From NCBI RefSeq assembly GCF_988242995.1, contig NZ_OZ547043.1: a DNA stretch of 64,000 nucleotides; one strand, given 5' to 3'. A model generated the notes under the pieces. The model ran no database searches, had not been told where the DNA came from, and worked only from the letters and a program-made list of their open reading frames with translations. Position numbers and translations under genes: made by a program. Of the stretch, positions 34,809 through 64,000 are shown in pieces (the stretch's first letter is position 1; every line of letters starts with the position of its first letter).

Positions 34809-34874
34809 GTTTGGATGCAAGAATGGCCCCCGTGGTGTTGTCAGGTGCATACCTGCAACGTGCGGGGGTTTTCT
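34809..34874 (+). ncRNA. Rdl-family antisense RNA (copy 1); coordinates approximate
   Basis: Plus-strand hairpin cccccgtggtgttgtcaggtgcatacctgcaacgtgcggggg followed by ttttctct, antisense to the ldr leader. Its 5' part differs from copy 2. Confidence 0.5.
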
Positions 34875-35135
34875 CTCTCCAGCAACCAATGCCACCAGGG
34901 ATTAAGCCCCCGCAACATTGCGCCTCACCGGAACCCTTCCGGCTTGACGCTGATTCTACGACTGTTTTTCTGTTCCGGAATCCATCACGTCTTCACTCTG
35001 TGCTGCGCATTCCGCAGAATATTATCCGCTTGCAACCGTTGCATTTTTCTTACGAAAAAGGCCGCAGAGTTTCACCCCTGCGGCCTGATCCGGGCGCAAA
35101 TTGCCATTACGGCAGCCTGACGCCCGCATGACACG

Positions 35136-35243
35136 TTACTTCCGCTTGTTCAGCCAGTTCATGATCATACTGGCAAGAATGCCAGCAATGACCGGAGCCG
35201 CTAAATCATGCCAGAAGGCCATGCCCAGTTCTGCGAGCGTCAT
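35136..35243 (-). CDS. ldrD: Ldr-family type I toxin, 35 aa (copy 2, LdrD-like)
   Basis: Last 35 codons of track ORF 35136..35378: MTLAELGMAFWHDLAAPVIAGILASMIMNWLNKRK. ATG at 35241-35243. Confidence 0.8.
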   Translation of the reverse strand: MTLAELGMAFWHDLAAPVIAGILASMIMNWLNKRK

Positions 35244-35291
35244 ATAGCCGCCTCTGTTGTAATGACAACGTTTCGCGGCTATTCTTGAGTG

Positions 35292-35357
35292 GTCTAGAGT
35301 CAAGATTAGCCCCCGTGGTGTTGTCAGGTGCATACCTGCAACGTGCGGGGGTTTTCT
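35292..35357 (+). ncRNA. rdlD: RdlD-like antisense RNA (copy 2); coordinates approximate
   Basis: ggtctagagtcaagattagcccccgtggtgttgtcaggtgcatacctgcaacgtgcgggggttttct: hairpin plus U-run, antisense to the ldr leader. Resembles RdlD as I recall it. Confidence 0.55.
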
Positions 35358-45361: not shown

Positions 45362-45684
45362 GCAAACAAACCCTGGACAAACAGGTGATAACACCCTGCT
45401 TAACGGCTTTTCAGGCCCGGCAGGGGAAAAGTGCGGAGGTAGTCAGATAAGTAAAATCTACACGCGCGAATAAGTAGACCACAGCAAAGGGAAAAAGTGT
45501 GGGGAAAGAGTGTGCACGAAGCACAAATTTACAAAAATGCAAGTTTGAAAAGAGACTTTAGCGTTACAAAAAGCAGTAAAAAGGGCCAGTTAACTGGCCC
45601 AAATTTTACGCGTCATTGTTTATACATTGCGTTGAAGCGTTTGATTCACACTAAGGCTAAAGCCCAGTAGCTCGCGGCAGATGA

Positions 45685-46893
45685 TTAAAGGGAGCCATGC
45701 GCCTCACGCAACATTTTCTGCTCTGGCTGACGAATCGTCGTAGAGAGCGCCAGTGACAGAATCAGCAGGGCGAAAATCACGTAGAAGGTCACATAGAAGC
45801 CGCCAAACAGTGAGGCGATAATCGACCCACAAATGCTGCCGATACCGAAACCGAGATAAATCACACCGTAGTTTTTCGCCAGGTTATTGAGGCCGAAGAA
45901 CTCACTGACCAGTGACGGGAACACCGTGATAGTGCCGCCAAAGTTAAACGCCACGCAGGCAATCGCTGCAAAGAACGTCACTGCATTCAATGGTGCAAAC
46001 AGCAGGGCCGCCATACCCACCAGCGAAATCACCTGACCAATGGTGATAACACGGATTCGGGCGATTTTGTCAGACAGTATCCCCAGAACCAGACGGCCTG
46101 AAAGGTTGGCGATGGAAATAACAGTGACTGCATTGGCTGCGGAAACCACATCAAGGTGTGCCAGACTTTGGGCGATATCTTTCGCTACCCCAATCACGTA
46201 CAGGCCGCTCATGCAGGCAGTCAGGAACATTACCGCTAACATCCAGTACTGCGGTTTACGCATCGACTCTGCCAGCGTGTAATCTTTCTCCACGACACCA
46301 TTGCTGGTTTTCACTTCCTGTTTTGGTGCGTCTTTCATTAACGTTGCGCCGAAAACAATCATCACCAGCGCAATCGCTCCCCAAATCACAAAAGTTTTTT
46401 CCAGACCCACCGTTTCCAGCAGCTGCGTGTCGATAAATTTGAACCCCAGGCTACCCAGACCATAAGAACCGATAGCGAACGCGGAGATCAGACCTTTACG
46501 CTCCGGGAACCACTTCACGCAGTTAGAGAGCGTCAGCAGGTAACCCGCGCCATCCGCCAGACCGACCAGCACACCGGCGCTTAACCACAGCATCATCAGG
46601 TTGTCAGAATGCGCTGTCAGGAAGAAGCCTAATCCCAGCAAAATGCCGGAAGCCATAGTGACGCGTTTAACGCCAAAACGTTCCTGTAATTTCCCCGCAA
46701 CAGAAGATGAAATTGCCAGCCCCAGACTTAACAAGCCGAAAGAGAAAGCGACCTGGCTTACCGGCGCATCCAGCTTGGCAGAAAGCGCGCCGTTAAACAG
46801 GCTCCAGGTATAAACCGACCCAAGGGCAAACTGGGTAATGATAGTACCGATGAGTGTCAACCAGCGGGTACGCTGATAATTTGAAGGTGTCAT
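45685..46893 (-). CDS. yhjX: MFS transporter (oxalate/formate antiporter-like), 402 aa
   Basis: Track ORF 45685..46938; conserved start MTPSNYQRTRWLTLIGTIITQFALGSVYTW at codon 16. Confidence 0.92.
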   Translation of the reverse strand: MTPSNYQRTRWLTLIGTIITQFALGSVYTWSLFNGALSAKLDAPVSQVAFSFGLLSLGLAISSSVAGKLQERFGVKRVTMASGILLGLGFFLTAHSDNLMMLWLSAGVLVGLADGAGYLLTLSNCVKWFPERKGLISAFAIGSYGLGSLGFKFIDTQLLETVGLEKTFVIWGAIALVMIVFGATLMKDAPKQEVKTSNGVVEKDYTLAESMRKPQYWMLAVMFLTACMSGLYVIGVAKDIAQSLAHLDVVSAANAVTVISIANLSGRLVLGILSDKIARIRVITIGQVISLVGMAALLFAPLNAVTFFAAIACVAFNFGGTITVFPSLVSEFFGLNNLAKNYGVIYLGFGIGSICGSIIASLFGGFYVTFYVIFALLILSLALSTTIRQPEQKMLREAHGSL

Positions 46894-47121
46894 GGCAGTA
46901 TTCCTGCAGTAATAAAAAGGAAAAATCTCTGCTGACAACCATAACGAAGTGCACTTTATGCCTGGGGAAAAACGGCATGAAATGCCATCAGAACGGAATG
47001 AAATGCATTAGTTCAGGAATGAATGACTCGACAATTATTCACCAAATTTATTATTTAGTAAGTTAGCACCCACTATCGCCACAACTGTTGTTATTCAATG
47101 GTTTCAATTGTATCTATAACG

Positions 47122-47826
47122 TTAAAATCTGGCGCTAACCCCCATCGTATACAGATAGTCGCTATTGTTAGTGGTATTTTCTGCCTGAGATAGCGCAGCA
47201 TAGGCAGCAATATTTTGATTGAGCAACATATCAGCGCCTACGGTGACATCCAGCCAGTTGCCGTTCTGGTTTGTCGCCGTCATCCGGCTCAGGCCTGATT
47301 GCGCCTTCCAGATATTCTCGCCAAATTGCTGGTTATAGCTGATTTGCGCCCAGGGTCGGAGATCGCCAAGCCGGGAGTCAACACGCCAGCCTAAGGTACT
47401 CACGCTGGCATGCCATAACGGATCGGCCAGCGTGGTAGTACTGTCGCCAAACTCGTTATACATCGAGGTGGTTGTGCCATCGTAATGTAATGCCGCGACC
47501 GGGCCGGTTGTAACCTGCTCATATAAAGGAAAATTCCAGCCCATACTCATACTGCTGGTCACATCCACAGGAGTTTCTTCCGCCAGATTGACTTCCAGTC
47601 CCAGCGCCCTTTGGCTACTTTGAATACGTTGCGACAAAATATCGTTGTAATCAGGTTGATGGTCACTATCCCAGGTGTAACGCTCTGTGGAATGTCCGGG
47701 TTGCGTATCAACGATATATTCTTGTTGCCAGGCGTAAGCTGTGTTGAGAAAAAAGGCACTGATTACCACACTCGCCAGCAGGCTTAGCTGCCAGCGACCA
47801 CCGCTTTTTTTTATGATCATTAACAC
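47122..47826 (-). CDS. yhjY: Autotransporter beta-domain-like outer-membrane protein, ~232-234 aa
   Basis: Track ORF MLMIIKKSGGRWQLSLLASVVISAFFLNTAYA...; ends in an aromatic residue (ARF) typical of beta-barrels. The start could be 6 bp downstream. Confidence 0.82.
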   Translation of the reverse strand: MLMIIKKSGGRWQLSLLASVVISAFFLNTAYAWQQEYIVDTQPGHSTERYTWDSDHQPDYNDILSQRIQSSQRALGLEVNLAEETPVDVTSSMSMGWNFPLYEQVTTGPVAALHYDGTTTSMYNEFGDSTTTLADPLWHASVSTLGWRVDSRLGDLRPWAQISYNQQFGENIWKAQSGLSRMTATNQNGNWLDVTVGADMLLNQNIAAYAALSQAENTTNNSDYLYTMGVSARF

Positions 47827-47977
47827 GACTCCAGGGAAGAGCCGAATTCGGCAATATTATTGTCATTGTATGAAGGATATCGGGCATAGTAGCCCTGTAT
47901 TAAATATTGACTTTTTCACCGATGCGTCAAGAAAAGCGGCTGAAATTTTTACGATCGGGTACATAGCGAGGGAAAGT

Positions 47978-48541
47978 ATGGAACGTTGCGGCTGGGTGAG
48001 TCAGGACCCGCTTTATATTGCCTACCATGATAATGAATGGGGCGTGCCTGAAACTGACAGTAAAAAACTGTTCGAAATGATCTGCCTTGAAGGGCAGCAG
48101 GCTGGGTTATCGTGGATCACCGTCCTCAAAAAACGCGAAAACTATCGCGCCAGCTTTCATCAGTTCGATCCGGTGAAGGTGGCTGCAATGCAGGAAGAGG
48201 ATGTCGAAAGACTGGTACAGGACGCCGGGATTATCCGCCATCGCGGGAAAATTCAGGCAATTATTGGTAATGCGCGGGCGTACCTGCAAATGGAACAGAA
48301 CGGCGAACCGTTTGCCGACTTTGTCTGGTCGTTTGTCAATCATCAACCACAGGTGACACAAGCCACAACGTTGAGCGAAATCCCTACATCTACGCCCGCC
48401 TCCGACGCTCTATCTAAAGCCCTGAAAAAGCGTGGTTTTAAGTTTGTTGGTACCACAATCTGTTACTCCTTTATGCAGGCATGTGGGCTGGTGAATGATC
48501 ATGTGGTTGGCTGCTGTTGCTATCCGGGAAATAAACCATGA
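47978..48541 (+). CDS. tag: DNA-3-methyladenine glycosylase I, 187 aa
   Basis: Track ORF 47741..48541 (266 aa) has a spurious N-terminal extension overlapping yhjY; conserved start MERCGWVSQDPLYIAYHDNEWGVPETDSKKLFEM (ATG at 47978). Confidence 0.94.
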   Translation: MERCGWVSQDPLYIAYHDNEWGVPETDSKKLFEMICLEGQQAGLSWITVLKKRENYRASFHQFDPVKVAAMQEEDVERLVQDAGIIRHRGKIQAIIGNARAYLQMEQNGEPFADFVWSFVNHQPQVTQATTLSEIPTSTPASDALSKALKKRGFKFVGTTICYSFMQACGLVNDHVVGCCCYPGNKP

Positions 48542-48978
48542 TTCGGGAAGCGCAACGTTCAGAACTCCCCGCGATCCTCGAACTGTGGCTGGAAAGTACA
48601 ACCTGGGGGCATCCCTTTATAAAAGCGAATTACTGGCGTGATTGCATTCCGCTGGTGCGGGATGCCTATCTTGCCAACGCGCAAAACTGGGTCTGGGAAG
48701 AAGACGGTAAGTTTCTCGGTTTTGTCAGCATTATGGAAGGCCGATTTCTGGCTGCAATGTTTGTCGCACCGAAGGCCGTCAGACGCGGTATTGGTAAGGC
48801 GCTGATGCAGTATGTGCAGCAGCGCCATCCCCATCTGATGCTGGAGGTTTATCAAAAAAATCAACCGGCGATAGATTTCTACCATGCGCAGGGTTTTCAC
48901 ATTGTCGACTGCGCATGGCAGGATGAAACCCAACTACCCACCTGGATTATGAGCTGGCCGGTGGTTCAAACGCTGTAA
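48538..48978 (+). CDS. yiaC: GNAT-family N-acetyltransferase, 146 aa
   Basis: Track [36 protein letters not shown]...; 4-bp overlap with the tag stop. Confidence 0.9.
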
Positions 48979-51280
48979 GTGTCAGTTCCGGACCGTTGTA
49001 TTTTTCCAGCCATGCCAGCGCCGTATTACCCGCACAGCCATTCCCCAGCCGCGAGCTGGGGAGATCTTTGGTCAGAACGTTCACCGCGCCGTTTTTACAA
49101 ATACCGTCAGCGGTTAAATCCAGATCCGGCCAAGCCCCTTCATGAATACAAATCACGCCAGGTTTAATTCCCTCGCTAATGACCGCTCCGGCAAGAATTT
49201 GCCCGCGTGCGTTCCACAACCGAACAATATCGCCATCTTGTATGCCGCGCGCCTGGGCATCGTCAGGATGAATGGTGACAGGCTCACGATTTGCCACCGC
49301 GTACAATTCGCGCAGAGAACTGTAATTCAGCTGGCTGTGCAGACGATGTGCCGGATGAGCAGAAAGTACCTGCAACTGTTCCGGTTCGGCATTGCCCTGC
49401 CATTCGTCCGGCTCCAGCCACATTGGATGCCCAGGGCAATCCGGATAAGCGTAATCGGCAATACGCTGCGAGAAGATTTCAATCTTGCCGCTGGCGGTTT
49501 TTAATGGATGCGCCTGCGGATCGCGGCGAAAATCGGCGAAGCGAATAAACCGCTCGCTGTCCGGGTTTTCCGGCATCTCAATTAACTGGTTGGCTTGCCA
49601 GAACTCAGCAAATGGCGGCAATTCAACCTGCTGGCTTGCCCCGCGCTGCCGGGCAACGTTATAAAACGTTTCCAGCCATTGCAGCTCACTTTTTCCTTCC
49701 GTAAACCGCGCATAGCCGCCCTTCTCCCAACGTTCACTCAACTCGGCAAAGACATCAAAATCATTACGCGCTTCATAACGTGGCGGCACCACTTGTTTCA
49801 TCGGCACCAGATGCTGATTGCTGTAATCGCCGGTCATGGTGAGATCATTACGCTCAAACGAAGTGGTCGCAGGCAGAACGATATCCGCGTGTTTCGCCGC
49901 AGCCGTCCAGAAACATTCGGAGATAACCACCAGTTCCGGTTTTTGCCAGGCACGGATCAGGCGATTGGTATCCTGATGATGAGTAAAGTTGGCACCGCCC
50001 GCCCACCAGATAAAACGAATATCCGGGAAATGTCGGTTCATACCGTTGTGTTGATATGCGCCACCAGGGTTTTCCAGTGCTTCAACAATGCGGGCAACAG
50101 GGATTTTATCTACCGCATCGGTGCCGCCAGGCAAGCTGCCCTGCATGGAAGAGAGCACCGCAGAACGCCGCGTGGGGTTACCACCATTGGCAAAATGATA
50201 AGAAAGACCAAAACCGCCGCCGGGTGTGCCGATTTGCCCCAACATTGCCGCCAGCGTGACGATCATCCAATGTTTTTGCTCACCAAACTGTTGACGCTGC
50301 ATTCCCCAGCCAGCCATCAGCATGGTCGTGTTTTGGTGGAAAAGAGCCGCCAGCTCGCGGATTTTCTCTGCGTTAACCCCACAAATCCCTGCCGCCCATT
50401 CGGCGGTTTTGGCTATTCCGTCACTCTCGCCCAGCAAATAAGAGGCGAAGACGGCATAACCGGTGGTGCAACGCGCCAGAAACGCTTCGTCGTGCCAACC
50501 ATTTTCCACCAACGTATGGGCGATCCCCAGCATCAGCGCAACATCGGTGCCCATGTGCGGTGCCACCCACTCCATTTTATCGCCAAAGAAATCGACGGTT
50601 TCCGATCGCATTGGATCAATGCAGATCAGCTTTTTCCCGCTGTCACGCAGTGCGGAAAAGTAAGAAAGCCCCTGCTCATCGGATGCATTCCAAGCAATTT
50701 TCAGCGTATTGAGTGGATTAGCACTCCACAGCACCACAACATCGCTATGTTCCAGCACCAGCGGCCAACTGGTTTGCTGTTGATAAACTTCGCTGCCACC
50801 CACGACATACGGCATGATCGCCTGTGCCGCGCCGGTCGAATAATCCCCCAGATGCCCGGTATAACCGCCTGCCAGCGCCATATAGCGTTGTAATAATGTC
50901 GAGGCCTTATGCAGCACGCCGTTTGAACGCCAGCCGTAGGAACCAGCAAAAATCGATGCCGGACCATAAGCCTCACGAATGCGTTTATGTTGTTGGTGAA
51001 TAAGCTCCAGCGCCTCATCCCAACTCACACGAACAAATTCATCCTGCCCGCGAATGCCTTGCGGTTTTTCCGGTGACGCAAGAAAGCCTTTGCGCACCAT
51101 TGGAAATCGTACCCGCGTATTGCTGTGAACCTGGTCGCGAACCGCGCTCTGCAAGGAGTTTTCCATTCCTGTGACTAACGCGCCACGCGAGCTAAACACG
51201 GTTTCGCCGTCGGTTTCAACCAGCATCGGCCCCCAGTGGGCGGCAGTCAGAACGGAATATCGTGAGGATGAGTTGGCCAA
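48947..51280 (-). CDS. bisC: Biotin sulfoxide reductase (molybdopterin oxidoreductase), 777 aa
   Basis: Track [41 protein letters not shown]...; the 3' end overlaps the yiaC 3' end convergently by about 32 bp. Confidence 0.94.
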
Positions 51281-51432
51281 ACCGAAGACTCCTGAAAGGT
51301 TAGATGTATTGAGCAGTTAAATATTACTTACAAATTTCCGAGTATTCCCAGGAATAATCTTCATGTTCACGCGGCATAATCTCCCGCCACGGAACCCGTG
51401 GCAAAGAATAAAAAGGTTATTAAGGATTAACA

Positions 51433-52092
51433 ATGAAGAAACGTGTTTATCTTATTGCCGCAGTAGTGAGTGGCGCTCTGGCGGTATCTGGCTGCACAAC
51501 TAACCCTTACACCGGCGAACGCGAAGCAGGTAAATCTGCTATTGGCGCAGGTCTGGGCTCTCTCGTGGGCGCGGGTATTGGTGCGCTCTCTTCTTCGAAG
51601 AAAGATCGCGGTAAAGGCGCGCTGATTGGCGCAGCAGCAGGCGCAGCTCTGGGCGGCGGCGTGGGTTATTACATGGATGTGCAGGAAGCGAAGCTACGTG
51701 ACAAAATGCGCGGCACTGGTGTTAGCGTAACCCGCAGCGGGGATAACATTATCCTCAATATGCCGAACAATATGACCTTCGACAGCAGCAGCGCGACCCT
51801 GAAACCGGCAGGCGCTAACACCCTGACCGGCGTGGCAATGGTGCTGAAAGAGTATCCGAAAACGGCGGTTAACGTGATTGGTTATACCGACAGCACGGGT
51901 GGTCACGACCTGAACATGCGTCTCTCCCAGCAGCGTGCGGATTCCGTTGCCAGCGCGTTGATCACCCAGGGCGTGGACGCCAGCCGCATCCGTACTCAGG
52001 GCCTTGGCCCGGCTAACCCAATCGCCAGCAACAGCACCGCAGAAGGTAAGGCGCAAAACCGCCGTGTAGAAATTACCTTAAGCCCGCTGTAA
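51433..52092 (+). CDS. yiaD: OmpA-family outer-membrane lipoprotein, 219 aa
   Basis: Track ORF MKKRVYLIAAVVSGALAVSGCTTNPYTGE... (lipobox VSGC); C-terminal OmpA peptidoglycan-binding domain (NRRVEITL). Confidence 0.92.
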   Translation: MKKRVYLIAAVVSGALAVSGCTTNPYTGEREAGKSAIGAGLGSLVGAGIGALSSSKKDRGKGALIGAAAGAALGGGVGYYMDVQEAKLRDKMRGTGVSVTRSGDNIILNMPNNMTFDSSSATLKPAGANTLTGVAMVLKEYPKTAVNVIGYTDSTGGHDLNMRLSQQRADSVASALITQGVDASRIRTQGLGPANPIASNSTAEGKAQNRRVEITLSPL

Positions 52093-52195
52093 TCCCTTTC
52101 ATGCCAGGTGATGCAGAAATCACCTGGCATTCTTCAGTTTTCCTTCATCATATTTCAGGCTAAGGTGATCGCCTTATCAGTGAATGGAGAGAAGC

Positions 52196-53170
52196 ATGAA
52201 GCCGTCCGTTATCCTCTACAAAGCCTTACCTGATGATTTACTGCAACGCCTGCAAGAGCATTTCACCGTTCACCAGGTGGCAAACCTCAGCCCACAAACC
52301 GTCGAACAAAATGCAGCAATTTTTGCCGAAGCTGAAGGTTTACTGGGTTCAAACGAGAATGTTGATGCCGCATTGCTGGAAAAAATGCCGAAACTGCGTG
52401 CCACATCAACGATCTCTGTCGGCTATGACAATTTTGATGTCGATGCGCTTACCGCCCGAAAAATTCTGCTGATGCACACGCCAACCGTATTAACAGAAAC
52501 CGTCGCCGATACGCTGATGGCGCTGGTGTTGTCTACCGCTCGTCGGGTTGTGGAGGTAGCAGAACGGGTAAAAGCAGGCGAATGGACCGCGAGCATAGGC
52601 CCGGACTGGTACGGTACTGACGTTCACCATAAAACACTGGGCATTGTCGGGATGGGACGGATCGGTATGGCGCTGGCACAACGTGCGCACTTTGGTTTCA
52701 ACATGCCCATCCTCTATAACGCGCGCCGCCACCATAAAGAAGCAGAAGAACGCTTCAACGCCCGCTACTGCGATTTGGATACACTGTTACAAGAGTCAGA
52801 TTTCGTTTGCCTGATCCTGCCGTTAACTGATGAAACGCATCATCTGTTTGGCGCAGAACAATTCGCCAAAATGAAATCCTCCGCCATATTCATTAATGCC
52901 GGACGTGGCCCGGTGGTTGATGAAAATGCACTGATTGCTGCATTGCAGAAAGGGGAAATTCACGCTGCCGGGCTGGATGTCTTCGAACAAGAGCCACTGT
53001 CTGTAGATTCGCCGTTGCTCTCAATGGCCAACGTCGTCGCAGTACCGCATATTGGATCTGCCACTCATGAGACGCGTTATGGCATGGCCGCCTGTGCCGT
53101 GGATAATTTGATTGATGCGTTACAAGGAAAGGTTGAGAAGAACTGTGTGAATCCGCACGTCGCGGACTAA
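52196..53170 (+). CDS. ghrB: Glyoxylate/hydroxypyruvate reductase B (D-2-hydroxyacid dehydrogenase), 324 aa
   Basis: Track ORF 52184..53170; conserved start [25 protein letters not shown] (ATG at 52196); NAD-binding GxGxxG (GIVGMGRIG). Confidence 0.93.
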
Positions 53171-53219
53171 GCCGCGACTGCGTGGAGTAAAGCCCGATAA
53201 TCGCTCGGGCTTTTACTCT

Positions 53220-53930
53220 TTATTGGGTTGCAGTAACTGCTGTAGTCCAGGCCTGATTAAACGCCTGATGCTGTGCCGGTAATGGCGCAATCAGTTTGTT
53301 ATATTCACTTGCCTGCTGTGACGTCGGGAACTGGATGCCATTTGCGACAAAGCTCACCTGAGTACCTTGCTGAGCAATGTAGTCTCCAACCATCACCAGT
53401 TGTTGCGTGAAAGTTTGTGCCGCCGGAATCAACGGTTGCAATGCATCAGCTGGCGTCGTTACCACTTTGGTGAATGCCTGATCAAAGACCGGTTTCAGGT
53501 CATCGCTCTGTTTTAGCGCAGAGTGCGCAGCATCGGCCTGCAACTTCGCATTTTGCAGCTGTTGCGCCAGTACGCCCAGAGAACCGTTCATTTCACGCAG
53601 TGGGCCGCTTTGCGTAACGTAATCCTGCGGTACGCGAATTGCGTTAACGCTGTCTACGACCGGGCGCAGACCGGAATCCATCGCCTGATTCACCTGCTGA
53701 GAATAACCATACAGAATCGCGTAATCAGAGACAAAAGGACCAAATTGTTTTTTCTGATCGGCAGTCAGGGTAGGTAGACGTTCACCGCTACGCATCACTG
53801 TATTCTGCAGGAAGTCGATAAACGCTTTACGCTGATCGCCTTCTTTATCAAAACACCCACTCAGGCTAACTACCATTAATAACGCCGCAAGAGGCGCAAA
53901 CCAGCGAGAGCAGGACTTTCCTGTCGCCAT
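53220..53930 (-). CDS. yiaF: Putative lipoprotein YiaF, 236 aa
   Basis: Track ORF 53220..54050; start at MATGKSCSRWFAPLAALLMVVSLSGCFDK (lipobox LSGC), ATG at 53928-53930. Confidence 0.88.
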   Translation of the reverse strand: MATGKSCSRWFAPLAALLMVVSLSGCFDKEGDQRKAFIDFLQNTVMRSGERLPTLTADQKKQFGPFVSDYAILYGYSQQVNQAMDSGLRPVVDSVNAIRVPQDYVTQSGPLREMNGSLGVLAQQLQNAKLQADAAHSALKQSDDLKPVFDQAFTKVVTTPADALQPLIPAAQTFTQQLVMVGDYIAQQGTQVSFVANGIQFPTSQQASEYNKLIAPLPAQHQAFNQAWTTAVTATQ

Positions 53931-54363
53931 TTTCTTACTCCTTTCACCCAAAAAAAGCGCACAACGACACACGCGTGTCTGACGTGACAAGGATAGTCCA
54001 GGACAGGCTTGCAGGATACCCTTTCTACGTAATCTTCCTGGTAAAATCATGGAGAAAATGAAACAAGGTTAATTTGTTGTTTCATTGTTAAAAAATGATG
54101 GTGCCGTTGCTTTTTTTGTAGCCAGAGATTTACGCCTTCGCAGAACATTAGATTTTCGAAATCTTTACAAACCGGGAGTGGTAAGAGATATATCGGCATT
54201 TATCAGATCGTTAGGTGGCTATAAGTCACGCTAAATGACTGGCTGAATCGAATCATAGCCAGAGCATGCCCTGACTTCACCCCGCTGTGTCTGCTTTTCC
54301 CGACTATTCTTAATGAGCTTCGATGCAATTCACGATCCCGCAGTGTGATTTGAGGAGTTTTCA

Positions 54364-54654
54364 ATGGAATATAAAGATCCAATGCATGAGCTGTTGAGCA
54401 GCCTGGAACAGATTGTTTTTAAAGATGAAACGCAGAAAATTACCCTGACGCACAGAACAACATCCTGTACCGAAATTGAGCAGTTACGAAAAGGGACAGG
54501 ATTAAAAATCGATGATTTCGCCCGGGTTTTGGGCGTATCAGTCGCCATGGTAAAGGAATGGGAATCCAGACGCGTGAAGCCTTCAAGTGCCGAACTAAAA
54601 TTGATGCGTTTGATTCAAGCCAACCCGGCATTAAGTAAGCAGTTGATGGAATAG
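54364..54654 (+). CDS. yiaG: XRE-family HTH transcriptional regulator, 96 aa
   Basis: Track ORF MEYKDPMHELLSSLEQIVFKDETQKITLTHRTTSCTEIEQLRKGTGLKIDDFARVLGVSVAMVKEWE... Confidence 0.9.
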   Translation: MEYKDPMHELLSSLEQIVFKDETQKITLTHRTTSCTEIEQLRKGTGLKIDDFARVLGVSVAMVKEWESRRVKPSSAELKLMRLIQANPALSKQLME

Positions 54655-54775
54655 ACTTTTATCCACTTTATTGCTGTTTACGGTCCTGATGACAGGACCG
54701 TTTTCCAACCGATTAATCATAAATATGAAAAATAATTGTTGCATCACCCGCCAATGCGTGGCTTAATGCACATCA

Positions 54776-54934
54776 ACGGTTTGACGTACAGACCATTAAA
54801 GCAGTGTAGTAAGGCAAGTCCCTTCAAGAGTTATCGTTGATACCCCTCGTAGTGCACATTCCTTTAACGCTTCAAAATCTGTAAAGCACGCCATATCGCC
54901 GAAAGGCACACTTAATTATTAAAGGTAATACACT
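54776..54934 (+). promoter_or_regulatory. cspA long 5' UTR (cold-box / RNA thermosensor leader)
   Basis: The leader acggtttgacgtacagaccattaaagcagtgtagtaaggcaagtcccttcaagagttatcgttgatacccctcgtagtgcacattcc... precedes the cspA ATG by about 159 nt. A -35/-10 pair (ttgcat ... gcttaat) and an AT-rich UP element lie just upstream. Confidence 0.8.
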
Positions 54935-55147
54935 ATGTCCGGTAAAATGACTGGTATCGTAAAATGGTTCAACGCTGACAAAGGCTTCGGCTTCATCACT
55001 CCTGACGATGGCTCTAAAGACGTGTTCGTACACTTCTCTGCTATCCAGAACGATGGTTACAAATCTCTGGACGAAGGTCAGAAAGTGTCCTTCACCATCG
55101 AAAGCGGCGCTAAAGGCCCGGCAGCTGGTAACGTAACCAGCCTGTAA
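54935..55147 (+). CDS. cspA: Major cold-shock protein CspA, 70 aa
   Basis: Track [73 protein letters not shown]; RNP1 motif KGFGFI. Confidence 0.97.
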
Positions 55148-55173
55148 TCTCTGCTTAAAAGCACAGAATCTAA

Positions 55174-55208
55174 GATCCCTGCCATTTGGCGGGGATTTTT
55201 TTATTTGT
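55174..55208 (+). terminator. cspA intrinsic terminator
   Basis: atccctgccatttggcggggat followed by ttttttta. Confidence 0.7.
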
Positions 55209-55334
55209 TTTTCAGGAAATAAATAATCGATCGCGTAATAAAATCTATTATTATTTTTGTGAAAAATAAATTTGGGTGCAATGAGAATGCGCAACGCCGT
55301 AAGAAAGGCGGGAATAACTTCCCGCCGAAGACTC

Positions 55335-55487
55335 TTACTCTTTCAAATTGCAGGCTAAAAATGCCGCCAGCTCATAACTCCCCTGTTTAATATGCAATTC
55401 ACACAGTGAATCTCTTATCATCCAGGTGAAAAATAAAAGCGTGAAACAAATCACTATTAAAGAAAGTAATCTATATTTCTGCGGCAT
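55335..55487 (-). CDS. hokA: Hok-family type I toxin HokA, 50 aa
   Basis: Track ORF 55335..55547 (70 aa); the last 50 codons MPQKYRLLSLIVICFTLLFFTWMIRDSLCELHIKQGSYELAAFLACNLKE are the Hok toxin. The in-frame upstream extension probably covers the mok/leader region. Confidence 0.85.
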   Translation of the reverse strand: MPQKYRLLSLIVICFTLLFFTWMIRDSLCELHIKQGSYELAAFLACNLKE

Positions 55488-55766
55488 TCCCAGCCCCCTA
55501 TGTTGATTTCCAACGAGTAAGAGGCTAACCTTATGGTGTTCAGGCATAGGGTAGCCTCACTTTGATTTATAGTCAGGTGGGGCTTTTCTCTGTCTGCCTT
55601 TCGGTGAATACCTGAGACAAACAGTCTCAAGCACCCGCAGCTATTCTAGCTTAATAAGTTCGTTTCTTCTCCTTGATATAATCCTAAAAAAATCTCATAA
55701 AATTAATATATGAGACAATCTTTATTCAGCAGAAGATTATTAAAGGTTGCTCTATTATTTAGCGAT

Positions 55767-55795
55767 AAAAAAGCCTGCCAGATGGCAGGCTTTTT
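55767..55795 (-). terminator. glyQS operon intrinsic terminator
   Basis: aaaaaagcctgccagatggcaggcttttt: stem gcctgcca / tggcaggc with flanking T/A runs, just 3' of the glyS stop. Confidence 0.7.
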
Positions 55796-55808
55796 AATAA
55801 CGGCGTTA

Positions 55809-57878
55809 TTACTGTAACAGCGAAATATCCGCAACGCGCAGGAACAGTTCGCGCAGTTTCTCCAGCATGGTCAAACGGTTGATACGCAATTCTTTGTCAT
55901 CAACCATGACCATCACTTTATCGAAGAAGGCATCAACCGGTTCACGCAGCTCAGCCAGTTCGACCAGCGCATCCTGGTAACGACCTTCAGCAAAGTACGG
56001 CTCCAGTTTATCGCGCAGCACAACCACCTGCATCGCCAGTTTAATTTCTTCCGGCTCTTTCAGAGTAGAAGCATTCACGCGATCGCTCAGCACTTCGTCA
56101 GACTTCGCCAGAATGTTAGATACACGTTTGTTCGCCGCCGCCAGTGCAGCAGCTGCATCCAGGGTACGGAAGTGCGATACCGCCTTCATACGGGCATCGA
56201 AATCTGCCGGACGAGTCGGACGACGCGCCAGTACCGCCTGGATGGTATCAACGGTATAACCTTCGTCCTGATACCAGGCGCGGAAGCGACCGAGCATAAA
56301 GTCGATAACATCATCAACCACGTTGGCATTAGTCAGCTTATCGCCATACAGACGCACTGCTTCTTCGGTCAGCGTTTGCAGATCAAGGTTGAGGTTCTTC
56401 TCAACGATAATGCGCAGCACACCAAGTGCGGCACGACGCAGCGCAAACGGGTCTTTATCGCCTTTCGGATGCTGACCGATACCGAAGATACCTGCCAGGG
56501 TGTCCATCTTGTCAGCAATCGCCAGCGCACAAGCCACTGGGTTAGACGGCAGGTCATCACCGGCAAAACGCGGCTGATACTGCTCGTTCAGCGCCACTGC
56601 CACATCTTCCGCTTCGCCATCGTGACGCGCGTAGTGCATCCCCATAACGCCCTGGGTGTCGGTGAACTCGAAGACCATGTTGGTCATCAGGTCGCACTTG
56701 GACAGCAGGCCCGCACGGGTTGCGTGGTTAACGTCAGCGCCAATCTGTTCAGCAATCCAGCCAGCCAGCGCCTGGATGCGGTCAGTTTTGTCGCGCAGTG
56801 TACCCAGCTGTTGCTGAAACAACACGGTTTGCAGGCGCGGCAGGTTATCTTCCAGACGTTTTTTACGGTCAGTGTTGAAGAAGAACTCGGCATCCGCCAA
56901 ACGTGGACGAACGACTTTCTCGTTACCAGAGATAATTTGCTGCGGATCTTTCGATTCGATGTTGGCAACGAAGATAAAGTTCGGCAGCAGTTTGCCGTCG
57001 TTCGCGTACACCGGGAAGTACTTCTGGTCACCTTTCATGGTGTAAACCAGCGCTTCAGACGGCACAGCGAGGAATTTCTCTTCAAATTTCGCGGTCAGCA
57101 CAACCGGCCACTCCACCAGCGAAGCCACTTCTTCCAACAGGCTTTCGCTTAAGTCAGCGTTACCGCCAATCTTACGCGCCGCTTCTTCGGCATCGGCTTT
57201 AATCTTCGCCTTACGTTCTTCGTAATCGGCGATGACTTTCCCGCGCTCACGCAGAATTTCCGGATACTGATCGGCATTGTCGATAGTGAATTCCGGCTCG
57301 CCCATAAAGCGGTGGCCGCGAATCACGCGATCGGACTGAATGCCCAGAATGGTAGCCGGAATAACTTTGTCGCCCAGCAGCAGGGTCACGGTGTGCACCG
57401 GACGCACGAAGTGCACGTCGCTTGCACCCCAACGCATCAGTTTCGGGATCGGCAGTTTCGCCAGCGAAGTCGCAACCATATTCGGCAACAGTGCTTCAGT
57501 GCTTTCGCCCTTCACGTGGGCGCGATACAGCAGCCATTCACCTTTATCGGTAGTCAGACGCTCAGCCTGGTCTACGGTAATACCGCAACCACGCGCCCAG
57601 CCTTCTGCCGCTTTGCTCGGTTTGCCTTCAGCGTCGAACGCCTGAGCAATCGCCGGGCCGCGTTTTTCGATTTCACGATCCGGTTGCGCTTCCGCCAGGT
57701 TAGCTACTTTCAGCGCCAGACGACGCGGAGCAGCAAACCATTGAACGGTGCCGTGTGCGAGACCAGCGTTATCCAGCTCCGCAGTAAAATTCGCAGCAAA
57801 GGACTCAGCCAGGCTGCGCAGTGCTTTTGGTGGCAGCTCTTCAGTGCCAATTTCCACCAGGAAAGTTTTCTCAGACAT
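55809..57878 (-). CDS. glyS: Glycine--tRNA ligase beta subunit, 689 aa
   Basis: Track [43 protein letters not shown]...; expected length. Confidence 0.97.
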
Positions 57879-57887
57879 AGCCGCCTC

Positions 57888-58799
57888 TTACTTATCTTTG
57901 TTGCACATCGGGAAGCCGAGGGCTTCACGGGAAGCGTAGTATGCTTCAGCCACTGCTTTGGTCAGGGTGCGAATGCGCAGAATGTAGCGCTGACGCTCGG
58001 TGACGGAGATGGCTTTACGCGCATCCAGCAGGTTGAAGCTGTGGGCGGCTTTTAGAATACGCTCGTAGGCTGGCAGCGGCAGTGGATTTTCCAGCGCCAG
58101 CAGCTGCTGCGCTTCTTTCTCGTACTGCTCAAAGCAGGTGAACAGGAAGTCCACATCCGCGTATTCGAAGTTGTAAGTGGACTGCTCCACTTCGTTCTGA
58201 TGGAACACGTCGCCGTAGGTGGTTTTACCCAGCGGGCCGTCGCTCCAGACCAGGTCGTAAACGCTGTCTACGCCCTGAATGTACATTGCCAGACGTTCCA
58301 GACCGTAGGTGATCTCGCCGGTAACCGGTTTACACTCCAGACCACCAACCTGCTGGAAGTAAGTGAACTGCGTCACTTCCATGCCGTTCAGCCACACTTC
58401 CCAGCCCAGCCCCCAGGCACCCAGCGTCGGGTTTTCCCAGTTATCTTCCACGAAACGGATGTCGTGGATGGTCGGGTCCATGCCCAGCTCTTTCAGAGAA
58501 CCAAGGTACAGCTCCTGAATATTGTCCGGCGATGGCTTAATGACCACCTGGAACTGATAGTAGTGCTGTAAACGGTTGGGGTTTTCGCCGTAGCGACCAT
58601 CGGTCGGGCGACGAGAAGGCTGAACATAAGCAGCCGCCATCGGTTCTGGCCCCAGCGCGCGCAGACAGGTCATTGGGTGAGAGGTTCCCGCGCCGACTTC
58701 CATGTCCAATGGTTGAACAATGGTGCAGCCCTGGCGAGCCCAGTAATCCTGTAAGGTCAGGATCAAGCCCTGGAAGGTCCTGGTATCAAACTTTTGCAT
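57888..58799 (-). CDS. glyQ: Glycine--tRNA ligase alpha subunit, 303 aa
   Basis: Track [45 protein letters not shown]... Confidence 0.97.
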
Positions 58800-58893
58800 A
58801 TTATTTCGTGCTGGATACGTGTGGATTTAAAGGAAGGGATCAGTATACCCGCTGGATGGAAGATATACAGTACGAAACGGGAAAAAGCAGGGC

Positions 58894-59202
58894 TTAACGC
58901 ATGGAAAGATGCAAAAAATGGCCATCTGCGTCAAAAGAACAGACAAACTGCTCTTTACGGAAGGTATAACCGCGCATTTCGTAGCTCCCCTGGAACTGTT
59001 CAAATGCGGTGACGTCGATTTTTTGCGCACCTGTATTATAGCGTTTTGCCGCCTGATCTTTGCATAGCCCTTCCATATTCAACGAACGCAGAGGATCAAC
59101 CTTTACCCGTTGTGCTTTCTGCACGGGTGGCGGTGTAGAACAACCCACTAGCGCCATAAGCACCATAAGCGCCATTGCCGGAAAGAAAGAGTTCATCATC
59201 AT
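58894..59202 (-). CDS. ysaB: Small lipoprotein YsaB, 102 aa
   Basis: Track ORF MMMNSFFPAMALMVLMALVGCSTPPPVQKAQRVKVDPL... (lipobox LVGC). Confidence 0.8.
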   Translation of the reverse strand: MMMNSFFPAMALMVLMALVGCSTPPPVQKAQRVKVDPLRSLNMEGLCKDQAAKRYNTGAQKIDVTAFEQFQGSYEMRGYTFRKEQFVCSFDADGHFLHLSMR

Positions 59203-59376
59203 TAAATTACCGTCTGGTTTGCAGGTGAGTCTTATTATTTATATCGGTATAGTGGCTGATATCTTACGAATTTCCTTAAGCCTCTATAAGCTGTAGTGAT
59301 AAAACTCAGATTATTCCAGTGCGCCAACCGAATGATTTATCGGTCAGACTTTTTTTAACCAGATACAGAGACACAG

Positions 59377-60372
59377 ATGCAGCCCAAAATTTACTGGATT
59401 GATAACCTGCGAGGGATAGCGTGTTTAATGGTGGTGATGATTCACACCACTACCTGGTATGTGACCAATGCTCATAGTGTTAGCCCCGTCACATGGGATA
59501 TCGCCAATGTTCTGAATTCTGCCTCTCGTGTCAGCGTGCCGCTATTTTTCATGATTTCCGGCTATCTCTTTTTTGGCGAACGCAGCGCCCAGCCGCGCCA
59601 TTTCTTGCGTATCGGCTTATGTCTGCTTTTTTATAGCGCAATCGCACTGCTCTACATTGCGCTGTTTACCTCCATCAATATGGAGTTAGCGCTGAAAAAC
59701 CTGCTGCAAAAGCCAGTGTTTTACCACTTGTGGTTTTTCTTCGCGATTGCGGTGATTTATCTGGTTTCACCGCTGATTCAGGTGAAGAACGTCGGCGGAA
59801 AAATGTTGCTGGTGCTAATGGTGGTGATTGGCATTATCGCTAACCCAAACACAGTGCCGCAGAAAATTGACGGTTTTGAATGGCTGCCAATTAACTTATA
59901 TATCAATGGCGATACTTTTTACTACATCCTGTATGGCATGTTGGGCCGCGCTATAGGGATGATGGACACACAGCATAAAGCACTGTCGTGGGTGTGCGCC
60001 GCACTGTTTGCGACGGGGGTTTATATTATCTCTCGCGGGACATTATATGAATTGCAGTGGCGCGGAAATTTTGCCGATACCTGGTATCTTTACTGTGGGC
60101 CGATGGTTTTTATCTGCGCAATCACGCTATTGACTCTGGTTAAAAACACGCTGGATACGCGTACCGTTCGCGGACTTGGCTTAATCTCCCGCCATTCGTT
60201 GGGTATATACGGATTCCACGCCTTGATTATCCATGCACTGCGCACCCGGGGGATTGAGCTTAAAAACTGGCCAATACTCGATATTATTTGGATCTTTTGC
60301 GCGACGTTGGCAGCGAGTTTGTTACTTTCTATGCTGGTACAACGAATCGACAGAAACAGACTAGTGAGTTAA
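59377..60372 (+). CDS. wecH: Membrane O-acetyltransferase for enterobacterial common antigen, 331 aa
   Basis: Track [38 protein letters not shown]...; acyltransferase-3 family. Confidence 0.92.
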
Positions 60373-60380
60373 ATAAATAT

Positions 60381-60405
60381 CCTCCGGCATAGCCGGAGGT
60401 TTTTC
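60381..60405 (+). terminator. wecH intrinsic terminator
   Basis: cctccggcatagccggagg followed by ttttt. Confidence 0.7.
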
Positions 60406-61110
60406 AAATGCGCCTATAAGGCTCTCTTACCAGCCGCGCCCTAACAGGCGCACACGATCTGACATTTGCATCCAACTTCGTTACTTACGGCCCGTAAACG
60501 GGCTGCCCGGATAGGGAATCGATAACTGCTCTCCCATTTTATCCTCTTCAAGCTGGTGCTTTATGTAATCCTGTATCTTCGCCGTGTTCTTACCCACTGT
60601 ATCGACGTAGTACCCTCTGCACCAGAACTCCCTGTTCCTGTATTTGAATTTCAAATCACCAAACTGCTCGTAAAGCATCAGACTGCTTTTCCCTTTCAGA
60701 TATCCCATAAAGCCGGATACGCTCATTTTGGGCGGGATCTCCACAAGCATATGGATATAATCTGCACAGCATTCAGCTTCCAGAATCCGTACGCTTTTCC
60801 ACTCACACAGCTTTCTCAAAATACTGCCTATTGCTCTACGCTTCTCTCTGTAGAACACCTGTCTTCGGTATTTTGGCGCAAAAACTATGTGATATTTACA
60901 GTTCCATCGGGTGTGCGCTAAGCTCTTTTCGTTCCCCATTGGGACCCCCTTTTGATTTCTTGTTTGACACTTGCAGTTGCCAGACCGCAAAGTGTTTTAA
61001 CAAATCAAAAGGGGTTTTAATAACTGGCTCAAAGCTGAAAGCTTTCCGGAACCCCCAGCCTAGCTGGGGGTTTTCTGTGCACAATAAAGGCCCGGTCACA
61101 TTGGACTGAC
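60405..61110 (-). mobile_element. IS200-like insertion sequence (IS200/IS605 family); boundaries approximate within about 30 bp
   Basis: Single Y1 (HuH) transposase gene with about 75 bp after the stop and about 170 bp before the start. The upstream end carries the characteristic perfect hairpin acccccagcctagctgggggtt. Total about 0.7 kb, as expected for IS200; no terminal inverted repeats, consistent with the family. Confidence 0.8.
60481..60939 (-). CDS. tnpA: IS200-family transposase TnpA (Y1 HuH transposase), 152 aa
   Basis: Track ORF 60481..60990; conserved start MGNEKSLAHTRWNCKYHIVFAPKYRRQVFY; HuH motif (HMLVEI) and catalytic Tyr region (RGYYVDTVG) present. Confidence 0.92.
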   Translation of the reverse strand: MGNEKSLAHTRWNCKYHIVFAPKYRRQVFYREKRRAIGSILRKLCEWKSVRILEAECCADYIHMLVEIPPKMSVSGFMGYLKGKSSLMLYEQFGDLKFKYRNREFWCRGYYVDTVGKNTAKIQDYIKHQLEEDKMGEQLSIPYPGSPFTGRK

Positions 61111-61118
61111 CGGGCTTA
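61087..61118 (-). terminator. Probable yiaA terminator hairpin
   Basis: Stem cccggtca / tgaccggg followed on the minus strand by ctttattgt, just 3' of the yiaA stop. It could instead be part of the IS200 end. Confidence 0.45.
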
Positions 61119-61124
61119 TGTGAA

Positions 61125-61562
61125 TTATTCGCTGTATTCTTCCTGGGTAACCTGTGTTTCTTTTAGTGGGTTTATTCCGGCATCACGAATATTCTTCTGC
61201 ACCGCTACTGCACCAAACAAGCTTAAGAAGAAAGCTAGTCCATAAAAACCTTTCTCGCTGAGTAATAATGTCGCATTCCACAGACCTACCATCAGTAATG
61301 CAACAGAGATAATAAAGACAGTCAGGCAGGTCATATAATAAATGGAAGTGGTCGGTATGCCTTCATACTTGTCCCGAACGGTCTTTTGATAAGACGCAGC
61401 AGAAAACAGTCCTAATACCAGTACGGCAAAATAATATCCTTTTTCATTTAACTGCATCTCTGCATTCCATAGCCCTAACAGATAGGTAACGATACCACCA
61501 ACGAGAGCTATCCATGACACAATACTGAATGCCGGAGAATAGGTTGATATTTTGTTGTCCAT
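61125..61562 (-). CDS. yiaA: Inner-membrane protein YiaA, ~145 aa
   Basis: Track ORF 61125..61565 [33 protein letters not shown]...; second Met taken as start; paralogue of the adjacent yiaB. Confidence 0.88.
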
Positions 61563-61607
61563 CACAGTATTCCTTTCATTCCTGAATGTGTAAGAGCTTT
61601 ATGTTGC

Positions 61608-61949
61608 TCATGCCGGGCGAAACAAACGCATTTGACCAAACAAGCAGACAAAAAAGGCGATAGGGTAGATCACCATTTCATAAGCATTGATAGGTGCGTT
61701 TAAAACACCTATAAACAAGAGACCGATAGTGATTAACGCAACTAACTGGCAGATGTGGGTAAAAAAATCATCCAGTTGCCCGAGTTTTTCTGCGCGAAGA
61801 TATGCATAGTTGCCAAAAGTTGCCGTCATTAACACGCCAAGAAAATAGCCTTTTCCACTTAACAATGGGCATGAGATCCATAGCCCAAGCAGATAAACCA
61901 GCGCCCCGGCAACAAATAATATTTTTGCCACAGTCTTTGAGGTTTTCAT
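61608..61949 (-). CDS. yiaB: Inner-membrane protein YiaB, 113 aa
   Basis: Track ORF 61608..61991; start taken at MKTSKTVAKILFVAGALVYLLGLW (ATG at 61947-61949); shares the YLLGLW and ...LFG motifs with YiaA. Confidence 0.85.
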   Translation of the reverse strand: MKTSKTVAKILFVAGALVYLLGLWISCPLLSGKGYFLGVLMTATFGNYAYLRAEKLGQLDDFFTHICQLVALITIGLLFIGVLNAPINAYEMVIYPIAFFVCLFGQMRLFRPA

Positions 61950-62116
61950 AACGATCTCCATATCTACCAGCGATACATTACGAGTAACCAACGAAAGACA
62001 AAACTGAAAAATGCCATTAACAAATGATTTCAGAATAAATTCATACTAAATATTAATTAATTACTGATATATATAGATGTAAATTATCCCCCACCCGGTC
62101 AGGCAGGGGATAACGT

Positions 62117-63571
62117 TTACGCCATTAATGGCAGAAGTTGCTGATAGAGGCGACGGAACGTTTCACGTCGTGGCTGATAAGCGGCATAACGCTGCGCATC
62201 TGGTAGATGCGACTGTTCTAACGGCAGTTGCGGCAACAACTCAATGAGCGATTTCTCTGGATTCGCCGCAATCTGCGCCAGCCTTGCTGCGCCCAGTGCT
62301 GGCCCCACATCCCCCCCCGTACGGTAATCGAGCCGCTGACCGCTGATATCCGCCAGCATCTGACGCCAGTACTCACTACGCGCCCCGCCACCAATCAACG
62401 TAACACTTTGCGGTTTAATGCCGCAGGCATGCACGACATCCATGCCATCTGCCAGCGCATAACCCACGCCTTCCAGCACTGCTCGCGCCAGTTCATTGGG
62501 GCCATGTTGATGAGTCAAACCAAAGAAAACCCCCTTCGCCTGGGGATTATTGTGTGGTGTACGCTCGCCGGAAAGATAAGGCAGAAACCAAACTGGCTCG
62601 GCACTTTCATCAGCCTGTTGAGCAGCCGCGATTAAAGCTGGGACATTGTTCAGGCCCGTTAATTTCGCAGCCCAATCCAGACACGACGCTGCACTCAGCA
62701 TTACAGACATTAAATGCCAACGCTGCGGTAGCGCATGGCAAAAGCTGTGTACGGCGCTTTCTGGCTTGCTTAAGAACCCTTCGCTGACAGCAAAATAGAC
62801 CCCCGACGTCCCCAGCGATAACATTGCCTGATTAGCATCAACCATTCCTACACCAACCGCACCAGCTGCATTATCACCACCGCCTGCGACAACTGGCACC
62901 GCCGCCATACCCCACGCTTTCGCAACTTCAGGTAGCAAAGCACCAGTAATTTCGCTGCCTTCGTATAATGCGGGCATCTGGTCACGAGATAAGTGGCAAG
63001 CCTGCAGCATGACGTCACTCCAGTCACGCTTTGCGACATCCAGCCACATGGTGCCAGCTGCGTCAGACATATCGCTGGCAAACTCCCCCGTCATACGCAG
63101 ACGCAAGTAATCTTTCGGTAACAATACTTTGTCGATTTGACGGAATATCTCCGGCTCATGCCGCTGAACCCATAGCAATTTAGGCGCAGTAAATCCGGGC
63201 ATCATCAGGTTACCGGTAATCACCCGCGATTGCGGAACTCGCGCTTCCAGCAAAGCGCACTCTTGCGCACAGCGCCCGTCGTTCCACAAAATGGCAGGGC
63301 GTAATAACCGTTGCTGGGCATCCAGTAAGGTTGCACCGTGCATCTGGCCGGCAATACCCAATGCTTTAACGTCCTGCAGAGAATGCTGATCGCCCAGGGC
63401 TTTCATTGCGCGATCAGTTGCCTGCCACCACTGTTCCGGGTCTTGTTCCGACCAGAGTGGATGCGGGCGCGAAACGGTCAGCTTTTCCGTTTGCGAAGCA
63501 ACCACCTCGCCCTGCTCGTTGAGCAAAATAACTTTTACGCCCGAGGTGCCAAGATCTATCCCGATATACAT
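62117..63571 (-). CDS. xylB: Xylulokinase, 484 aa
   Basis: Track ORF MYIGIDLGTSGVKVILLNEQGEVVASQTEKLTVSRPHPLWSEQDP...; FGGY carbohydrate kinase. Confidence 0.96.
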   Translation of the reverse strand: MYIGIDLGTSGVKVILLNEQGEVVASQTEKLTVSRPHPLWSEQDPEQWWQATDRAMKALGDQHSLQDVKALGIAGQMHGATLLDAQQRLLRPAILWNDGRCAQECALLEARVPQSRVITGNLMMPGFTAPKLLWVQRHEPEIFRQIDKVLLPKDYLRLRMTGEFASDMSDAAGTMWLDVAKRDWSDVMLQACHLSRDQMPALYEGSEITGALLPEVAKAWGMAAVPVVAGGGDNAAGAVGVGMVDANQAMLSLGTSGVYFAVSEGFLSKPESAVHSFCHALPQRWHLMSVMLSAASCLDWAAKLTGLNNVPALIAAAQQADESAEPVWFLPYLSGERTPHNNPQAKGVFFGLTHQHGPNELARAVLEGVGYALADGMDVVHACGIKPQSVTLIGGGARSEYWRQMLADISGQRLDYRTGGDVGPALGAARLAQIAANPEKSLIELLPQLPLEQSHLPDAQRYAAYQPRRETFRRLYQQLLPLMA

Positions 63572-63642
63572 ATCGATCGTTCCTTAAAAAAATGCCCGGT
63601 ATCGCTACCGATAACCGGGCCAACGGACTGCACAGTTAGCCT

Positions 63643-64000
63643 TTATTTGTCGAACAGATAATGGTTTACCAGATTTTCCAGTTGCTCCTGGCGACCACTC
63701 TGATGCACCGGAGACAAATTGTGTTCCTGAGCATATTTGGCTAAATCTGCCAGTGACATTTGGCCTTTCAGGATTTGCTGGCCTAATTCGCTATTCCAGC
63801 CGGAATAACGCTGCGCGATGCGTTTATCCAGCTCGCCATCTTCAATCATGCGTGCTGCAATTTTCAGCGCCAACGCCATCGTATCCATCGCGCCGATATG
63901 ACCGTAAAACAGATCATATTTATCAGTACTTTGACGACGTACTTTGGCATCGAAGTTCAGACCGCCGGTGGTGAAACCGCCTGCTTTGAGAATTTCATAC
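63643..64000 (-). CDS. xylA: Xylose isomerase (C-terminal ~119 codons; 5' end beyond the window)
   Basis: Track fragment 63643..63888 ends ...[14 protein letters not shown], the XylA C-terminus; the frame stays open to the window edge and sits upstream of xylB as in xylAB. Confidence 0.88.

Follow-up and report, generated by a model that had tools for sequence, protein, structure and literature searches.

The hokA locus lies between cspA (54935–55147, plus strand) and glyS (55809–57878, minus strand), and hokA itself occupies 55335–55487 on the minus strand. The window, by which we mean the whole 64,000-nt stretch of DNA that was analysed, is collinear over its entire length with positions 3,665,298–3,729,800 of the Escherichia coli K-12 chromosome, at ~97.7% identity. 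An earlier note on this DNA had described about 320 bp of uninterrupted sequence running from hokA to glyS, and both the description and its coordinates are right: the 321 bp that separate the hokA ATG from the glyS stop codon (55809) contain no insertion sequence (IS). The coding features and the upstream boundary of the locus are listed below.

55335–55487, minus strand: hokA toxin open reading frame (ORF), 50 aa, MPQKYRLLSLIVICFTLLFFTWMIRDSLCELHIKQGSYELAAFLACNLKE, identified with Pfam and NCBIfam
55335–55547, minus strand: mokA frame, 70 codons, with its ATG at 55547
55555–55558, minus strand: mokA Shine-Dalgarno (SD) sequence GAGG, 7 nt ahead of the mokA ATG
55765–55793, minus strand: glyS intrinsic terminator hairpin, the upstream boundary of the hokA locus

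The HokA protein of the window matches the Pfam family HOK_GEF (PF01848) with 83.2 bits (cutoff 22) and the NCBIfam HokA equivalog NF007290 with 131.9 bits (cutoff 89). It is the common allele WP_001135738.1, which O157:H7 and many further strains also encode; two substitutions (E36G and K47N) separate it from K-12 HokA, and Cys14, Cys29 and Cys46 are all present. The mokA ATG is located 60 nt upstream of the hokA ATG and the two genes share a frame, with hokA nested within mokA. This 70-codon mokA–hokA frame is retained in most orthologues, and the mokA SD is invariant across the orthologue alignment, in which GAGGC belonged to the search pattern. A 23-codon ORF annotated in K-12 as ysaE (55287–55358, plus strand) runs antisense over the 3′ end of hokA and is intact in the window.

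The leader of the hokA mRNA matches Rfam RF01794 over the full length of the model (positions 1–157), with 125 bits against a gathering score of 59 and an E value of 1.4e-29; the family is named 'sok', yet it models the mRNA-sense leader. The leader, its promoter and the elements predicted to govern the folding of the mRNA are as follows.

55643–55648, minus strand: hokA promoter −10 box TAGAAT, 6 nt before the inferred +1, with a poor −35 box
55485–55636, minus strand: hokA mRNA leader, from the inferred +1 (GGGUGCUUGAG) to the hokA AUG, Rfam RF01794
55625–55636, minus strand: tac element, the mRNA 5′ end
55579–55584, minus strand: ucb-like box AGCCCC, pairing with the 5′ end in the fold of the 3′-truncated RNA
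55481–55498, minus strand: segment with the hokA SD and AUG (GGGGGCUGGGAAUGCCGC), sequestered by 55350–55367 in the 3′ part of the hokA coding sequence
55307–55326, minus strand: GC-rich 3′ hairpin (GGCGGGAAGUUAUUCCCGCC), just past the hokA stop codon
55274–55286, minus strand: fbi element (UCUCAUUGCACCC), pairing with tac in the full-length mRNA

The predicted folds contain the fold-back elements of a hok mRNA, namely the tac–fbi pairing, the ucb refolding and the SD-sequestering helix. Specifically, the predicted full-length RNA (55636 to 55262) has a fold z of −7.3, and in its minimum-free-energy fold the first 12 nt (GGGUGC.UUGAG) pair with 55286–55274 (CUCAU..GCACCC) to make the tac–fbi fold-back. 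The energy of this duplex is −18.9 kcal/mol, and a duplex as good was obtained in 21 of 5000 dinucleotide shuffles of the 3′ UTR. When the RNA is cut after the GC-rich hairpin, the 5′ end is predicted to refold locally onto AGCCCC (ucb), which is consistent with 3′ processing to an active mRNA. In the folding model, the GC-rich hairpin at 55307–55326 is likely to be the 3′ end of the processed hokA mRNA, and two of its pairs show GC↔AU compensatory changes among orthologues. Unlike in plasmid R1, no dedicated terminator hairpin was found after fbi.

Of 19 orthologues, 18 keep the hokA −10 box unchanged, the exception being strain JJ1887 with TGGAAT, and no recognisable −35 box was found in the hokA promoter. 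A generic promoter scan called neither the hokA nor the sokA promoter; both were placed instead via homology to R1 and conservation. The strand opposite the leader carries the following two predicted features of sokA.

55503–55531, plus strand: putative sokA promoter, with −35 box TTGATT (55503–55508), a 17-bp spacer and −10 box TAACCT (55526–55531), placed by R1 homology and conservation
55538–55593, plus strand: predicted SokA RNA, whose 5′ tail covers the mokA start region and is followed by a hairpin and a U-run, its 5′ end inferred

The sok-like antisense promoter motif, TTGATT-17-TAACCT, is homologous to that of R1 and conserved across genera. In particular, it aligns with the R1 motif TTGCGC-17-TATCCT, and the TAnnnT pattern and the spacing are kept across genera; the −10 box matches the consensus at three of its six positions. 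The SokA hairpin and U-run fold with a z of −6.1, and the 3′ part of the RNA (55559–55593) corresponds to the annotated sokA remnant of K-12. The mokA start, which is also the Sok 5′ recognition region (55538–55554), occurs in E. coli as two allele types, GCUACCCUAUGCCUGAAC and GCCCCUCUAUGCAUAGAC, with differences at 6 of 14 positions. The second type resembles other genera, and the two types may correspond to different Sok specificities.

The earlier note had placed an IS150 copy (insJ/insK) beside hokA in K-12, and the MG1655 annotation bears this out, with the order hokA, mokA pseudogene, IS150 (3720633–3722075, insJ/insK), a 35-nt sokA pseudogene remnant and glyS. The element measures 1,443 bp and is annotated inside the mokA pseudogene. 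The genes that flank this hokA::IS150 locus (hokA b4455, mokA b4647, sokA b4614) are the same as in the window, and the hokA ORF is intact in both. The window aligns straight through both K-12 junctions and has no IS150 within 55335–55808. The K-12 left flank ends at window position 55519 and the right flank resumes at 55558 or 55559, and the alignment thereby defines two further features.

55520–55557, no strand assigned: segment of 38 bp absent from K-12, from junction mapping onto the window
55558–55562, no strand assigned: empty IS150 target site CACTT, occupied in other E. coli

Within the 38-bp segment lie the mokA ATG, some of the mokA SD, and the sokA −10 box together with the sokA 5′ end; loss of the segment therefore leaves K-12 without a sokA −10 box, a sokA 5′ end and a mokA start. 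Since these 38 bp are gone and no target-site duplication is found at the K-12 IS150 junctions, the K-12 arrangement is not a simple insertion. In addition, IS150 separates K-12 hokA from its own promoter, tac and 5′ leader. Judged from the junctions, the IS150 copy and the 38-bp loss of K-12 are a derived disruption. According to reviews, the five K-12 hok loci have been inactivated by IS elements, point mutation or rearrangement.

All sequence elements of a hok/sok system, the sokA promoter and RNA as predicted ones, are present in the window, and the folds, Rfam, Pfam and NCBIfam agree. The locus is very probably a complete, ancestral chromosomal hokA–mokA–sokA type I toxin–antitoxin (TA) locus of the hok/sok family. 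It has the same position (cspA–hokA–glyS) and the same toxin equivalog as the E. coli hokA/mokA/sokA locus, and the IS-free organisation of hokA in E. coli C (Pedersen & Gerdes 1999), to the extent that this study is summarised in a 2026 preprint, is the same as that of the window. The hok/mok/sok locus of plasmid R1 shares the order of elements (−10 box, tac, ucb, mok SD and AUG, sok promoter (putative in the window) within mok, hok, GC-rich 3′ hairpin and fbi), the fold-back logic and the Rfam and Pfam families. An R1-type locus, reconstructed as the plasmid sequence minus IS150 and one copy of the duplication, is collinear with hokA element by element at a nucleotide identity of ~52%. The two systems differ in how the nested frames relate: mokA and hokA share one frame at a spacing of 60 nt, while R1 has mok in the +1 frame at a spacing of 58 nt. 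They differ, furthermore, in that the hokA locus is chromosomal and syntenic across genera and, unlike the R1 paradigm, has no post-segregational killing reported for it in the work summarised by the preprint.

By homology with plasmid R1 hok/sok, the weak hokA promoter (−10 TAGAAT) would produce an mRNA of ~370 nt, in which tac pairs with fbi while a long-range helix hides the hokA SD and AUG. Because tac–fbi is closed and the hokA SD and AUG are buried, this full-length RNA would be neither translated nor bound by the antisense RNA. Slow 3′ trimming to the GC-rich hairpin would remove fbi, upon which the 5′ end would re-pair with ucb and the mokA start region would be exposed. A short, unstable SokA made from the opposite strand would pair with the mokA start region and block translation of mokA, and hence of hokA; upon loss of SokA, HokA would be made and would damage the inner membrane. 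It is from this homology that we infer transcription, processing and toxicity in the source strain. In the 2026 preprint, overexpression of the HokA coding sequence is reported to be toxic, and HokA to need no RNA editing because both cysteines are encoded.

An uninterrupted leader is present in 2,793 of 5,426 complete E. coli genomes, the K-12 left junction in 1,659, and a second junction type, with IS150 reversed at 55558–55562, in 1,129; the three counts total more than 5,426, the classes overlapping slightly, and they are approximate because composite arrangements such as the WB61 inversion reuse junctions. Outside these genomes, one DNA-pattern scan of species-representative genomes, which could find only leaders intact over the first ~85 nt, returned 63 hok-like leaders. 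Fifteen of the 63 adjoin glyS, and nine of these 15 also have cspA inside the fetched stretch. The glyS-adjacent loci come from E. albertii, cryptic Escherichia, Citrobacter sedlakii, four Kluyvera species, Klebsiella oxytoca, K. michiganensis, two Pseudocitrobacter species, Phytobacter and two MAGs, and glyS–hokA synteny accordingly extends to at least five other genera (Citrobacter, Kluyvera, Klebsiella, Pseudocitrobacter and Phytobacter). Pseudocitrobacter faecalis has three hokA-type loci in tandem between glyS and cspA, and the 70-codon mok–hok frame is intact in each of them. The E. albertii leader ends at a contig end after AACACAG, and a repeat element is likely in this leader because it stops there.

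The predicted structure of the window was projected onto an alignment of 19 orthologues from seven genera. It is paired in 91.8% of alignment cells, versus 40–46% when the partners are slid. Double-sided changes are found at 15 pairs and in 37 cells, values matched by 2 of 500 and 0 of 500 shuffles, respectively. The tac–fbi helix is paired in 98.6% of cells across the 19 orthologues, and no double-sided covariation is possible within it because its 5′ side was fixed by the search pattern; the SD-sequestering helix (helix 9) is paired in 95.7% and has three pairs with double-sided changes. RNAalifold independently recovers tac–fbi, the SD-sequestering helix and the 3′ hairpin. Leader identity between genera is 85–91%, a range that includes 25 positions ascertained rather than observed since the scan pattern fixed tac, AAAAGCCCC and GAGGC, versus 65–82% for the toxin coding sequence. 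The leader is also more conserved than the adjacent glyS coding DNA.

Because about half of E. coli are intact, the synteny crosses genera and the mRNA structure covaries, we regard the IS-free state as ancestral and maintained; that the uninterrupted arrangement is the ancestral one is well supported by the sequence comparisons. The earlier note had suggested that the arrangement may be ancestral and potentially active. The first half of this description is upheld by the population counts, the synteny, the collinearity with R1 and the derived IS junction classes, while the second holds in the sense of structural intactness only, as read from the sequence, with no inactivating mutation found in any regulatory element of the window. 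Over the 20-kb stretch 44000–64000, the exact haplotype of the window is absent from the 5,426 complete genomes. The best match reaches 99.2%, and the source lineage is not represented in the collection, given that no genome exceeds this value over 20 kb. In the nearest relatives, ~390 bp are inserted between cspA and hokA, including an ORF annotated as yidD; this insert is absent from the window.

The hokA leader has received IS150 in at least four arrangements, within about 100 bp. In the K-12 type, IS150 is in forward orientation, 38 bp are deleted and there is no duplication. In the type of strain 23713, IS150 is reversed and CACTT is repeated, while in that of strain 98228, which is among the closest relatives of the window, IS150 is reversed with a clean 3-bp CTT duplication. 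In WB61, an inversion associated with IS150 makes use of the K-12 junction again, and a second junction falls in the tac stem. Furthermore, a plasmid R1-type hok leader has IS150 at the homologous nucleotide, with a TGG duplication. At a query coverage of 80% or more, this plasmid hok–IS150 junction is matched by 1,355 PLSDB plasmids, some of which carry the annotation ISKpn8 in Klebsiella. The positions of these junctions suggest site-directed targeting of the Sok-hairpin/mok-SD segment by IS150. In published work, hok/sok loci are hotspots for mobile-element insertion, and repeated IS150 insertions in hok regulatory regions have been published from experimental evolution.

A comparison by eye of the IS150 terminal repeats with the hokA target gave a mirror-like resemblance only, which has no physical meaning. 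In the O145 strain RM12275, CTC is replaced by AGTACTA at the IS150 site (the equivalent of window positions 55555–55558), and this strain shares a C-to-A change at 55558 with the K-12 right junction. The AGTACTA sequence is similar to an IS150 terminus (CAGTACA); it may be the scar of an excision, with the mok SD destroyed.

Taking the orthologues and the insertions together, we tentatively offer one possible broader reading. The hokA–glyS locus would be an ancient chromosomal type I TA system, inherited vertically in the Enterobacteriaceae, whose RNA architecture is selected and which has some host-level function, and IS150-group elements (IS150 and its ISKpn8-annotated relatives) would specifically target the 5′ arm of the Sok hairpin (the mok SD when read on the opposite strand) in chromosomal and plasmid hok leaders alike, acting as a recurrent and possibly selected off-switch.

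Damage to hokA also takes forms other than IS150. The JJ1887 allele is IS-free and has three candidate lesions, corresponding to window positions 55647, 55488 and 55279: the −10 box reads TGGAAT instead of TAGAAT, mokA is thrown out of frame by the loss of 1 bp immediately ahead of the hokA ATG, and one tac–fbi pair is broken by a G-to-A substitution in fbi. This allele may represent decay without an IS. In Kluyvera sichuanensis, hokA is split by an ERIC-like insert of ~130 bp; hokA of Escherichia sp. E1V33 has a frameshift, and that of Kluyvera genomosp. 3 has a nonsense codon.

Such alleles bear on whether the locus of the window, anatomically intact as it is, could be silent or neutral, its RNAs made without killing and its DNA kept by inertia or by hitch-hiking beside the essential glyQS. 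We consider this possible but doubtful. Point lesions in JJ1887, Escherichia sp. E1V33, Kluyvera genomosp. 3 and K. sichuanensis would fit such neutrality, as would the tolerance of IS disruption by roughly half of E. coli and the description of chromosomal hok loci in the literature as decaying. The IS-free hokA of E. coli C, in the account that the 2026 preprint gives of Pedersen & Gerdes 1999, showed neither post-segregational killing nor activation by rifampicin, and since it gave none, intact anatomy does not guarantee R1-like killing. Neutral DNA, however, would not retain the compensatory helix changes together with the conservation of both promoters, and the synteny over at least seven genera, with a leader conserved above the toxin coding sequence and the glyS coding sequence, likewise argues against silence or neutrality.

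A different history, in which the IS-free state is secondary because IS150 inserted once and was then precisely excised, is highly improbable. Precise excision of IS3-family elements is rare. The closest relatives (99.2% over 20 kb) do have IS150 with the clean 3-bp CTT duplication, and the AGTACTA replacement at the site in the O145 strain could be the scar of an excision, but the site in the window (GCCTCACTTTGATT) shows no scar and has exactly the sequence that other lineages and genera conserve, other close relatives such as strain 405 and 2012C-4221 are also without IS150, and a site that was never inserted is the more parsimonious explanation. We also regard it as rather unlikely that 55640–55808 encodes, besides serving as the hokA promoter region, a separate plus-strand small RNA ending at the glyS terminator. 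A perfect extended −10 box, TGATATAAT, at 55674–55682 (plus strand) points at this terminator and 55690–55800 folds with a z of −4.7, yet the box is not conserved in other genera. The Rfam STnc370 match at 55735–55801, of 46 bits, falls below the gathering score of 54 and is mostly the terminator hairpin, and a literature search on STnc370 or a plus-strand small RNA here gave nothing useful. The plus-strand signal at 55674–55801 may reflect a small RNA or only a bidirectional terminator.

For the complete hokA–mokA–sokA locus itself, the intact, IS-free state is already known from published work, and the intact hokA/sokA form is ordinary, being shared by about half of sequenced E. coli and on record since 1999. 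It is K-12 that is unusual, and this strain serves poorly as a reference for the biology of chromosomal hok loci; functional work on hokA should use an IS-free allele such as that of the window. The genus-spanning synteny and a leader more conserved than the toxin are leads for work on type I TA systems, and the several separate IS150 insertions within about 100 bp, together with the homologous plasmid site, are leads for work on IS target choice.

Two further features of the window differ from K-12. An ldr/rdl type I TA locus is tandemly duplicated at 34569–35357, as two 300-nt copies 483 nt apart with two Rfam rdlD matches, where K-12 has just one ldrD/rdlD. Between wecH and yiaA, at 60378–61084, the window has an IS200-type element that K-12 does not have; it contains a Y1-transposase ORF (60481–60990, minus strand) and an Rfam STnc490 match at 60949–61072 with 145 bits.
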